Positions 48,421 through 51,188 of a stretch of 64,000 nucleotides of DNA are shown here, in pieces. The translations under genes and the position numbers were made by a program. This stretch comes from Aestuariivirga sp. (lineage in GTDB: Bacteria; Pseudomonadota; Alphaproteobacteria; Rhizobiales; Aestuariivirgaceae): the NCBI GenBank assembly GCA_041745135.1, contig JBGTJO010000090.1:6494-70493 (forward strand), given 5' to 3'. Position 1 is the first letter of the stretch. Each line of letters opens with the position of its first letter. Under the pieces are notes generated by a model that worked only from the letters and a program-made list of their open reading frames with translations, was not told the origin of the DNA and did not search any database.

Positions 48421-51188
48421 TCATACTCGATAGTGGAGCCATCGAAAACCTGTTCACCGCCGGCGGCGAGCAAGCTTGGTCCCTCCTTTTTAAAACAGGG
48501 CAGCGTGTCGTTGTTCCGGATTACATTCTTACAGAATTGGGAGGAATTCCCCCGCAACTTCCGGATAACTCGCCTAATCCAAATTTTGGCTTAAGGCAAA
48601 GGTTCGAAGACTGGATGTCGGGGCGCAGTTCTTCCGAAATCGTCATAGTACATTATGAGCCGCCTCCGCGCCCCGGAGATTTGGGCGACAACATTATCCG
48701 GGACTTAATGAATGGTGACACGCCGCAGGCAAGAGCTGCGCTCGCCGATGCCGGAATTTCCTCCGGCTCCGAGTTCCGTCTTCTGTCGGACGACTCAAAG
48801 TTCGTCTTTGACATAAAGGCCGAGACGGATGACTTCGGCAAAGCCGGATTAGGATCAGTCGGGCAGTACGCGCCGCCCTACTACGGGACTTTCGAATTCT
48901 TGAACGAGCGCCGAGTGAATGGAGACCTCACCGAGGCTGCATATGATGTTCTTCGCAGCAATTTTGAAGGTTCGCACCGCGTGACCTCGCTTTCCGGCGG
49001 AGGCTCCCCGGGCACCCTTGATTTCAAAGGCCAGATTATCCCGCACGGCGGGGGAGGTAATTACGTTTACGAACAGCTTGTCAAAGTGATTGGACCTTTC
49101 ATTGACGATGAAGGGGGCGGCGTTGACGCTCATATCGCCCTTAAGGGCGGTCTGGTTGGCGGCGCACTTGCCCTGTCGGCCAAGTTCGGGCTGATTGGCG
49201 ACGTTCTGTCGTTCAGTATGACGGTCACCACGGCGGCTGACTTGCGGGAAGAAGGCAGGATAGCCGAGGCAAACGAACTTTGGCTCCGGTACATATTTGA
49301 GACAGGGGGTGGCACGGCTGGAACGGTCCTTGGATTTATCGCGTCTGGAATGGCTCTCAAGGGATTGGGGGGGCCGCTCGTTCCAGTCATCGGTGCTTTG
49401 TTAGGTGGCGTTGCCGGGTCGCTTGCCGGAGCACCTGTCGGCAGCGCTTTATACAAGGCAGCACCTGAACTCTTCGATCCAATATTTGCGAAGATTTATG
49501 ATGTCGCGGATGCCGCCGCCGCAGTAGGGAACAAGTCGGTGTTCGAAGCGATGTATGATGCCATTACCGATGGCTTCGGTTTTACCCTCAATCCGGCAAC
49601 AGGAACAGCCAATTCCGATCTCATGTGGGCCGCGGACTATGGCGAACGCAGGGGCAACGATGGCGACGACGTGCTTATCGGCTGGAAGCCGGATTATATT
49701 TTTGCAGGGGACAAGGTTGATCCCGACAATCCCAATAGTGAAGTAGCGCAGACCGACCTGCGCCTTACTCTTGACGGCGGCAAGGGCGACGATTGGCTGG
49801 TGGTTCTCGGCGGCACGGGCGCCATCACGGTGGGTGGCGAGGGCAGCGACTTCATCTTCAACACATCCTACAAGGGCCAGCTCTACGGCGATACGATCGA
49901 CGGCACGGGCTCCTCCGACCCGGACGTGTTCTGGTACTGGCCGGACACCTTCATCATGGATGCCGATTCCAACGATCTCCTGCAGATGTTCGGCTTTCCG
50001 CTGCTTGGGGGCTCGAACTCGATTGCCGGCATTCCCGCAGGCGATGGCTCGATGGCGATCGACTGGCTGTTCTGGTTTGTGTTCTATGGCGTGAGCACCA
50101 GCGGCCAGCTGCTGATCTATAACTCGCTTGCCGATCTCGTGGACGGCGACCAGGGCTCAGGCATCATGGCCGTCGAGAACTACGAGTTCGGCGGCTTCCG
50201 GGATGAAACCTACGGCGTCCCGGCGGCGGGCGATCTCGGCATGACGTTCCGCATCTACAATCCAAGTGCCGCGGATGCGCTGGAGATTTCAATATTCAAT
50301 GCGGTGTGGGGCTCGCTCTTCACCTATATCGACGTGCTGTTCAACCTCGCGAAAGCGCTGCACTGGCAGCCGGTCGACGATCCCCTGGTGCTCGATCTCG
50401 ATGGCGACGGGATCGAGACCACTTCCGAGAGCCAGTCCGGGGTGCGCTTCGATCTCGATGGGGATTTCTTCGCGGAGAAGACGGGGTGGCTCAAGAGCGA
50501 TGACGGCTTCCTGGTCATCGACCTGAACGGCAATGGGCGGATCGACGATATCTCCGAGATGTTCGGAGGACCCGATCAATCGGGCTTCGCCGATCTGGCT
50601 TCAATGGATTCGAACCTCGATGGCGTGATCACCATTGCCGATGCCGGCTTTGCTTCGCTGCGCGTCTGGCGCGATCTCGACCAGGACGGGGTGACGGACC
50701 AGGGCGAGCTCACCACGCTGGCGCAGCAGGGGATCGTGTCGCTGGGCCTCTCGAACACAGCACTCGATCTCGAGACGCCGCAGGGCAACCGCCTGCTGGC
50801 CCATGGCAATTACACCCGGGCCGACGGCACGACGGGCAAGATGTTCGATCTGGCGTTCGACACCGATCCAACCGACACCGTCTACCGGGGCGAGCGCGGG
50901 ATCGCGGCCTGGCTTTCCGCCGAGACGCTGCCCAACGCCAAGGGCTTCGGCTCGATGACCGATCTCGCCACCGCTGCTTCCAATGAGTTTACGCTGGCGG
51001 AGACGGTCATGGCGGCGGCGGCTTCCATGACGGCGCCCGATCTCGAAGACATCCGCGCCAAGGCAGCGCCGATCTTCGGGGAATGGGCGCAGTCGCTGGA
51101 GCTGACGCGCGAGCTCCTTAGCTACAACGCGGACGCGCTGGCGGCTAATGACAATGGCTCGCAACTGGCGCGTGCAGAGGCTGCCTAA
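48405..51188 (+). CDS. Truncated (orphan) RTX-family cassette protein: PIN-like N-domain, Gly-rich hydrophobic helices, self-processing module, ssrA-like tail
   Basis: IILDS..(D9), VVVP.Y...EL (E44), DLGD (D95), LLSDD (D130); D659-PLVLDLDGDGIET; ends AANDNGSQLARAEAA. No C-terminal RTX repeat region. Confidence 0.8.
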   Translation: MADRLIILDSGAIENLFTAGGEQAWSLLFKTGQRVVVPDYILTELGGIPPQLPDNSPNPNFGLRQRFEDWMSGRSSSEIVIVHYEPPPRPGDLGDNIIRDLMNGDTPQARAALADAGISSGSEFRLLSDDSKFVFDIKAETDDFGKAGLGSVGQYAPPYYGTFEFLNERRVNGDLTEAAYDVLRSNFEGSHRVTSLSGGGSPGTLDFKGQIIPHGGGGNYVYEQLVKVIGPFIDDEGGGVDAHIALKGGLVGGALALSAKFGLIGDVLSFSMTVTTAADLREEGRIAEANELWLRYIFETGGGTAGTVLGFIASGMALKGLGGPLVPVIGALLGGVAGSLAGAPVGSALYKAAPELFDPIFAKIYDVADAAAAVGNKSVFEAMYDAITDGFGFTLNPATGTANSDLMWAADYGERRGNDGDDVLIGWKPDYIFAGDKVDPDNPNSEVAQTDLRLTLDGGKGDDWLVVLGGTGAITVGGEGSDFIFNTSYKGQLYGDTIDGTGSSDPDVFWYWPDTFIMDADSNDLLQMFGFPLLGGSNSIAGIPAGDGSMAIDWLFWFVFYGVSTSGQLLIYNSLADLVDGDQGSGIMAVENYEFGGFRDETYGVPAAGDLGMTFRIYNPSAADALEISIFNAVWGSLFTYIDVLFNLAKALHWQPVDDPLVLDLDGDGIETTSESQSGVRFDLDGDFFAEKTGWLKSDDGFLVIDLNGNGRIDDISEMFGGPDQSGFADLASMDSNLDGVITIADAGFASLRVWRDLDQDGVTDQGELTTLAQQGIVSLGLSNTALDLETPQGNRLLAHGNYTRADGTTGKMFDLAFDTDPTDTVYRGERGIAAWLSAETLPNAKGFGSMTDLATAASNEFTLAETVMAAAASMTAPDLEDIRAKAAPIFGEWAQSLELTRELLSYNADALAANDNGSQLARAEAA
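49761..51115 (+). repeat. Shared cassette segment, copy 1 (~1.35 kb direct repeat with ~53995-55355)
   Basis: Collinear from RLTLDGG.G.DWL to SLELTREL. The 3' two-thirds are nearly identical at the DNA level. Confidence 0.92.

Follow-up and report, generated by a model that had tools for sequence, protein, structure and literature searches.

A putative gene-encoded mimic of the tmRNA tag at the end of an orphan toxin gene in an Aestuariivirga RTX array

Polymorphic toxin loci are known for stacking spare toxin-immunity modules (Zhang et al. 2012, PMC3482391), and gene-encoded C-terminal ...AA tails that lead to ClpXP are known from natural SsrA-like degrons, such as class C-motif-1 ClpX substrates and anti-sigma factors of M. 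tuberculosis (PMC8138137; bioRxiv 10.1101/491043). For the tmRNA (SsrA) tag, the critical ClpX determinant in E. coli is the terminal Ala-Ala (PMC10862746). Here we analyzed a stretch of 64,000 nucleotides (nt), hereafter the window, from a metagenome-assembled genome (MAG) of Aestuariivirga sp. (Alphaproteobacteria; assembly GCA_041745135.1, contig JBGTJO010000090.1, positions 6,494 to 70,493). It holds an array of RTX toxin genes in which an orphan toxin open reading frame (ORF) of 927 amino acids (48405-51188; all parts of the array named below lie on the + strand) has neither an RTX body nor a C-terminal secretion signal and ends in a short tail, AANDNGSQLARAEAA, which resembles the tag that the host's own transfer-messenger RNA (tmRNA) encodes. 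This tail is probably a genetically encoded SsrA-mimic degron, with the Ala-Ala read by ClpX and the NDN by SspB. As such it appears to combine two known kinds of element, encoded SsrA-like degrons and orphan toxin cassettes. We found no paper on this combination, and our literature searches gave no description of such tails in work on the NDN adaptor determinant, on self-processing module (SPM)/RTX polymorphic toxins, on orphan-toxin degrons or on ApxIVA/FrpC immunity.

The orphan's tail and the host tmRNA tag

A sequence-only reading of the window had placed an SsrA-like tail at the end of the orphan, after SLELTREL, and a second copy of it in a relic cassette upstream; both are there. In the translation of 48405-51188, ...SLELTREL is followed by eight junction codons (LSYNADAL; 51117-51140) and then by AANDNGSQLARAEAA, with the tag codons at 51141-51185 and a TAA stop at 51186-51188. 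The extreme C-terminus reads ...RAEAA, i.e., Ala-Ala with a free carboxylate. Similarity between the orphan and the full-length giant RTX gene downstream stops at TREL (51115/6), where the giant ORF goes on with APVLLGTNG, and exactly at 51115 a Logan contig carrying the main-gene copy ceases to follow the window. The relic copy (47287-47331) reads SANDN-SQLARVKAA, with GAA in place of the stop. The codon differences quoted in that reading are likewise correct (AAT GAC AAT vs AAC GAC AAC; GCT GCC vs GCG GCT); over the 14 shared codons, the relic and orphan tails differ by 5 synonymous and 2 non-synonymous substitutions, by an in-frame indel of one codon, and by the loss of the stop.

Both junctions are bridged by separately assembled Logan contigs (X1 record 6, covering 50856-51282, and X2 record 7, covering 46356-47418) and are therefore real DNA and no assembly chimera; these contigs come from hot-spring runs of the same study and may stem from the very samples that yielded the MAG. 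No RNA run holding the stretch was listed, the matching runs being DNA contigs of one hot-spring study. The tail-plus-leader module is repeated in the window at 80-87% identity, and a search for it found nothing beyond these two copies in the organism's own genome and only three short matches in 200 genomes of the family, one of which, 25 nt in a DUF1214 gene, is taken up below. In a predicted structure of residues 640-927, the SPM part is folded and the last ~25 residues have a predicted local distance difference test (pLDDT) score <50, which fits an exposed, disordered end; the tail lacks alignment depth in this model.

The comparison with the organism's own tmRNA tag, also proposed in the sequence-only reading, came out in the same direction. 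The tag of the MAG, encoded by an ssrA gene on another contig, is ANDNYAPVALAA, and it agrees with the tail in the A-ANDN start and the terminal Ala-Ala. The tail is laid out as A-ANDN-GSQLARAE-AA, its ANDN block being the same as in the host tag, with 10 residues after NDN compared to 8 in the tag. At the DNA level, the match between the tail and the tag-coding part of ssrA is limited to the NDN codons, and a tmRNA gene or gene fragment in the window was ruled out (none by ARAGORN, no relevant Rfam match at E<=1). Judged from these comparisons, the mimicry is one of peptide sequence, and the tail is no captured ssrA fragment. Alphaproteobacterial tags have the form (A)ANDN...AA; in the tag, NDN is an SspB contact, and the SspB site is reportedly the N-terminal part. 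SspB is present in 30 of the 30 congeners searched.

Specifically, we envisage the following sequence of events. The variable toxin domain forms the N-terminal end of an RTX protein of the type-I-secreted kind and would be freed outside the cell by an FrpC-type Asp-Pro SPM. Older units of "partner gene + toxin head + SPM" persist upstream as orphans, having kept their start codon and lost the RTX body and secretion signal. An orphan, if translated, would remain cytoplasmic. There, ClpX would engage its free C-terminal Ala-Ala and, in Alphaproteobacteria, the SspB adaptor would bind the ANDN block 10 residues upstream of the end, and ClpXP would unfold and degrade the orphan while downstream genes stay expressed. 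In this scheme, we infer the translation of the orphan, its recognition by ClpX and SspB, and a selective benefit from having less of a toxic or useless protein.

Tails of orphan genes in other loci

Next, we evaluated whether comparable orphans elsewhere end in the same way. An SPM profile was run against ORFs in all six frames, first of the window together with 80 loci of named genomes and two metagenome loci; 20 further loci, taken from 400 evenly sampled alphaproteobacterial genomes, and four contigs were added later. Orphans were defined without regard to their tails, i.e., as an SPM hit with a real stop that precedes a longer SPM gene on the same strand. Overall, 13 of 14 orphans ended in Ala-Ala, compared to 21 of 516 control ORFs of the same loci (Fisher 3e-16), several of these 21 being further truncated toxin pieces. 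The sequence-only reading had expected such tails to be enriched on truncated cassettes relative to full-length RTX genes, and this proved correct, since only 1 of 18 full-length relatives with a stop ended in Ala-Ala (5e-7). An ND[NE] motif was found within the last ~30 residues of 8/14 orphans and 2/516 control ORFs (9e-13); the pattern exceeds chance expectation. Ala-Ala/NDN tails occur on orphans across taxa and are absent from full-length relatives, which end in the usual type-I secretion motifs DDFxF-V/A.

A similar pattern was seen among 120 database homologues of near-equal length, of which 24 have a terminal AA and 13 an NDN among their last 36 residues. Their tails join the RTX body at different points, and NDN tends to lie 6-10 residues from the end, a spacing also found in true tags. 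When the cases were grouped conservatively, about 17 of about 20 groups included an Ala-Ala end and the others ended in VA or GA. The NDN half was found in only about half of the orphans elsewhere, i.e., the universal feature is the terminal Ala-Ala. The near-constant endings of comparable spare genes in many other bacteria suggest a putative built-in disposal signal.

The tails could also be compared with the tags of their hosts. NDN tails appeared wherever the host taxonomy was known as alphaproteobacterial, and the tags of those hosts start with ANDN. For example, five Sphingomonadales hosts have the tag ANDNEALALAA, and their orphans end in sequences such as AANDEAMMEFDGSVAA or ...ALEQAA. 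For a Nitrospirales host, the tag was read by eye as ANEPLALAA, from a locus on the - strand with an Rfam tmRNA score of 133.9 bits and no ARAGORN prediction (L095:1500-1830), and the many paralogous orphans there end in ...SAHTERIAA without NDN. The Nitrospirales MAG with a 4.1-Mb chromosome (L048, L052) encodes at least 6-7 paralogous truncated SPM proteins with the common end ...GERGLAEWE(R/G)SAHTERIAA; these paralogues (P0045, P0046, P0050, P0052, P0055, P0056) also share the same downstream DNA and form a large orphan family outside Alphaproteobacteria.

Alternative explanations and the route to the junction

A degron function of the tail is consistent with a published screen in which random C-terminal 5-mers were fused to a VapC toxin in E. 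coli, so that rescue meant destruction of the toxin: 91% of the 100 best rescuers had a terminal Ala-Ala, a tag ending in LVA was among the strongest, and the effect was ClpXP-dependent (PMC10862746). Several points weigh against this reading of the tail. In the same screen, Ala-Ala was necessary but not sufficient (PMC10862746), and the antepenultimate residue of the window's tail is Glu (EAA) and not Leu or Val; direct recognition by ClpX may therefore be only moderate, a shortfall that an adaptor site like NDN would make up for. SspB and the ClpX zinc-finger family were not found in this MAG, a result that is uninformative at 77% completeness. A few orphans end in VV, GA, YM, or VA, and tails are duplicated within arrays and common to related loci, i.e., the cases counted above are not fully independent. 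Finally, about half of the orphans elsewhere have a stop that overlaps the start of the next gene (GCATGA, TGATG) just after a GGAG-type ribosome-binding site, and at these overlapping stops the conservation of the tail may be partly at the DNA or RNA level.

This last point is the starting point of the explanation that survives best among the alternatives, namely that the tail is a by-product of a nucleic-acid constraint at the 5' edge of the cassette, i.e., a ribosome-binding site, a start overlap, or a promoter or recombination sequence, and hitch-hikes with the leader, its likeness to the tag being functionless. Besides the overlapping stops seen in many loci, two loci speak for it. One (L022) has no recognizable orphan and nonetheless carries a homologous tail remnant, ...NFDDAQFAREVA-stop, ending in EVA-stop directly 5' of the start of the immunity gene; compared to the tail of a related locus (L022:6800-6880 vs L019:6840-6910), it shows mostly non-synonymous differences (10, against 2 synonymous), i.e., no peptide constraint is seen in this pair, of which the L022 copy is detached from any orphan. 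In the other (L007:14435-14553), AANDNQMSAWREAAFPMSLVV-stop is in frame with the orphan and is followed 20 nt later by an out-of-frame SNDNRAILSEQAA-stop whose TGA overlaps the ATG of the next gene; blocks of DNA are identical between the two tails, without a single synonymous difference.

The explanation by nucleic-acid constraint is at odds with orphans in which no overlap exists. Among ten orphans whose stop lies 15 to >500 nt from the next gene, Ala-Ala was kept in 7 and a final Ala in all 10 (p 2e-8); the window's orphan belongs to this group, the next ORF starting 277 nt downstream. Furthermore, an ATGA overlap fixes only one base, the last one of the final codon, and not two Ala codons, and NDN belongs to no ribosome-binding site. 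The Ala codons differ between loci (GCT GCC, GCG GCG, GCA GCA, GCG GCA, and others), as do the stop codons and, at their wobble positions, the codons for Asn and Asp (AAY GAY AAY), all of which argues for a peptide as the recurring element and not for a single DNA word. We did not take the wobble variation within NDN as proof of purifying selection: this would be circular because the tails were chosen for having NDN, and only the enrichment relative to controls counts. On this evidence, we consider a functionless by-product unlikely.

A second alternative retains a functional peptide and assigns it another role, as a C-terminal signal for binding of the immunity protein, for targeting to a membrane or to another export route, or for degradation by Lon, ClpAP, FtsH, or the periplasmic protease Prc/Tsp. 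Recurrence at the peptide level fits such a signal equally well, the protease and adaptor having been inferred from likeness to the tag. However, tails of 10-20 residues that vary greatly outside NDN and AA are a better fit to a minimal protease tag than to a binding or secretion signal, and the full-length relatives carry DDFxF-V/A secretion ends instead of these tails. This makes a different signal, in our view, quite improbable.

The remaining alternative concerns the origin of the tail DNA. The first 25 nt of the tag-coding stretch (51145-51169) are identical to a segment of a DUF1214 gene, close to its 3' end (...SNDNGSQLATRVALPAVQRVGC; L004:1500-1525), in a congener genome (G062), at E 1.5e-5 per genome with 201 genomes searched. 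The corresponding SND(N/G)GSQ occurs at the hypervariable DUF1214 C-terminus only in the clade of that congener, and the orthologue in the organism's own genome is without it; the match may represent captured filler DNA or chance. A tail that is nothing but a chance likeness or filler captured at an illegitimate junction, e.g., from this DUF1214 3' end, is very unlikely: the exact 25-nt match and the descent of both window copies from one event are in its favor, but it gives no account of like tails on unrelated junctions in >15 other loci, and filler capture would be compatible with later selection as a degron and bears on origin more than on function.

Returning to the tail as an encoded degron, its position also bears on how it reaches the junction. 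The window shows two different fusion points between the SPM and the tag-plus-leader module, after ...DLAIAAC in the relic and after ...TREL plus eight filler codons in cassette 1, which fits a tail that forms part of a cassette's 5' edge and would be reused at each new junction. These two fusion points, together with the tail remnant that stands without an orphan in L022, lend some support, short of proof, to the proposal in the sequence-only reading that tag and leader travel as the 5' edge of an incoming cassette. Under this scheme, a new "leader + immunity + toxin head" unit would insert into the resident SPM, and its first codons would cap the displaced toxin in frame. Such a disposal device at the cassette edge would let type-I-secreted polymorphic toxin arrays keep translatable spares safely. 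The fuller claim, that a mimic of the tmRNA tag has been selected as a portable element at the 5' edge of N-terminal toxin cassettes, caps displaced toxins in frame for destruction, and tracks the host tag across phyla, is put forward tentatively, and we see it as possible but rather doubtful.

The toxin array and its relation to known systems

The array is headed by an HlyC-type RTX acyltransferase gene (46269-46907; Pfam PF02794, E 1.6e-11). It is followed by the relic of an older orphan, a decayed 3' SPM part with deletions and frame breaks (46960-47286; recognized by alignment to 50560-51115, repeat families D6, D7, and D9), which leads into the relic tag copy. The first leader copy (47340-47621; 83-87% identity to the second) is an intergenic module 5' of the partner gene of cassette 1, presumed to encode immunity (47638-48420, from the ORF list and sequence). 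The orphan follows, and behind its tail lie the second leader copy (51204-51489), the partner gene of the active cassette (51465-52049; 194 amino acids, low GC, with an N-terminal hydrophobic segment), and the 5' part of the full-length giant RTX gene (52055-64000), whose frame runs on uninterrupted over 8434 amino acids in the genome assembly (G000:C90). Each ~280-nt leader precedes a different small ORF.

The orphan (P0001) is organized as a unique N-terminal head (about residues 1-440), a shared pre-cleavage domain, and the SPM. Its residues ~440-905 match residues 640-1105 of the giant protein (P0002), and the two genes show 81-92% DNA identity in two reported 300-nt blocks. The precomputed match to PF26745, the FrpC/ApxIVA-type SPM, is found on the orphan and on all homologues found. 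In both proteins, the SPM has a conserved Asp-Pro site within the motif ...DDPLVLDLDGDGIET (orphan residues 659-660, DNA 50379-50384; giant protein residues 856-857), a candidate cleavage site. The orphan's ATG overlaps the end of the first partner gene by 16 nt (48405-48420), with GGAG 10 nt upstream, which suggests translational coupling and a translatable orphan.

As is typical of orphans in polymorphic toxin systems, the orphan has a homology block in common with the adjacent full-length gene, and partner ORFs of their own stand at 47638 and 51465. Related loci show the same order, i.e., type I secretion genes and hlyC, at least one unit of a small partner and a truncated head-SPM ORF, and a very long RTX gene. 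Imm11 partners occur in one related array (L007), and the heads of database homologues include AHH-nuclease (PF14412) and phospholipase-like (PF26363) domains. Pfam searches with both N-terminal heads and the partner ORFs of the window gave nothing significant, and the terms "toxin" and "immunity" as used for the window therefore rest on context. By its gene order, the locus is a polymorphic toxin system in mirror image, with the variable domain N-terminal and the spares upstream.

Additional features were recorded in and around the array. A promoter scan of both leaders detected no site above chance. Hairpin-plus-T terminator-like sites numbered 13 between 46900 and 52100, compared to 4.3 +/- 2.1 in shuffled sequence, and were mostly located within the low-GC partner gene and the orphan head. 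Upstream of the array, a 70-nt direct repeat (83% identity) occurs at 43977-44046 and 45886-45955, 1.9 kb apart, one copy inside a molybdopterin-dehydrogenase-like ORF and the other just downstream of a GST-like ORF.

If the tails do work as degrons, bacteria have repeatedly copied the ribosome-rescue tag into DNA to neutralize the translatable leftovers of toxin swaps, a problem that orphans of contact-dependent inhibition (CDI) and Rhs systems avoid by having no start codons. Trans-translation quality control would thereby be linked to loci of interbacterial warfare. The tails would also provide a naturally occurring collection of alphaproteobacterial degrons graded by strength, and an SPM fragment ending in NDN...AA would be a simple sequence signature for a widespread and apparently undescribed class of polymorphic RTX toxins with N-terminal toxin domains.

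Compared to "clip-and-link" RTX proteins of the FrpC/ApxIVA type, the locus shares the Asp-Pro site in ...DDPLVLDLDGDGIET, the PF26745 match, the RTX body, and an HlyC-like neighbor. In the FrpC/ApxIVA type, however, no swappable antibacterial N-terminal head with arrays of orphans is known, and the heads in the window have no Pfam match. The array resembles CDI (cdiA-CT/cdiI), Rhs, and MafB orphans in that spare modules are stacked beside one full-length gene and a common homology block permits swapping. CDI and Rhs proteins have the toxin domain at the C-terminus, with start-less orphans downstream, whereas here it is N-terminal, and the orphan lies upstream with its ATG and Shine-Dalgarno sequence kept. 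Here, type I secretion would be the export route and an SPM serves as the homology block, unlike in CDI, Rhs, and MafB loci, for which no degron cap has been described.

Among degradation signals, the tail is similar to the tmRNA/SsrA tag read by SspB and ClpXP in its C-terminal position, A-ANDN start, Ala-Ala-COOH end, length, and spacing. It differs in being gene-encoded and not added by trans-translation, in its middle (GSQLARAE, compared to YAPVAL in the host's own tag) and its antepenultimate Glu, and in DNA that is without ssrA similarity beyond the NDN codons, in a window without a tmRNA-like RNA. The natural SsrA-like degrons are likewise gene-encoded, C-terminal ...AA tails and, as here, would lead to ClpXP. 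Those degrons, however, regulate functional proteins and are often conditionally exposed, while the present tails cap truncated, displaced toxin genes and recur at recombination junctions, many of them also copying the adaptor-binding NDN half.

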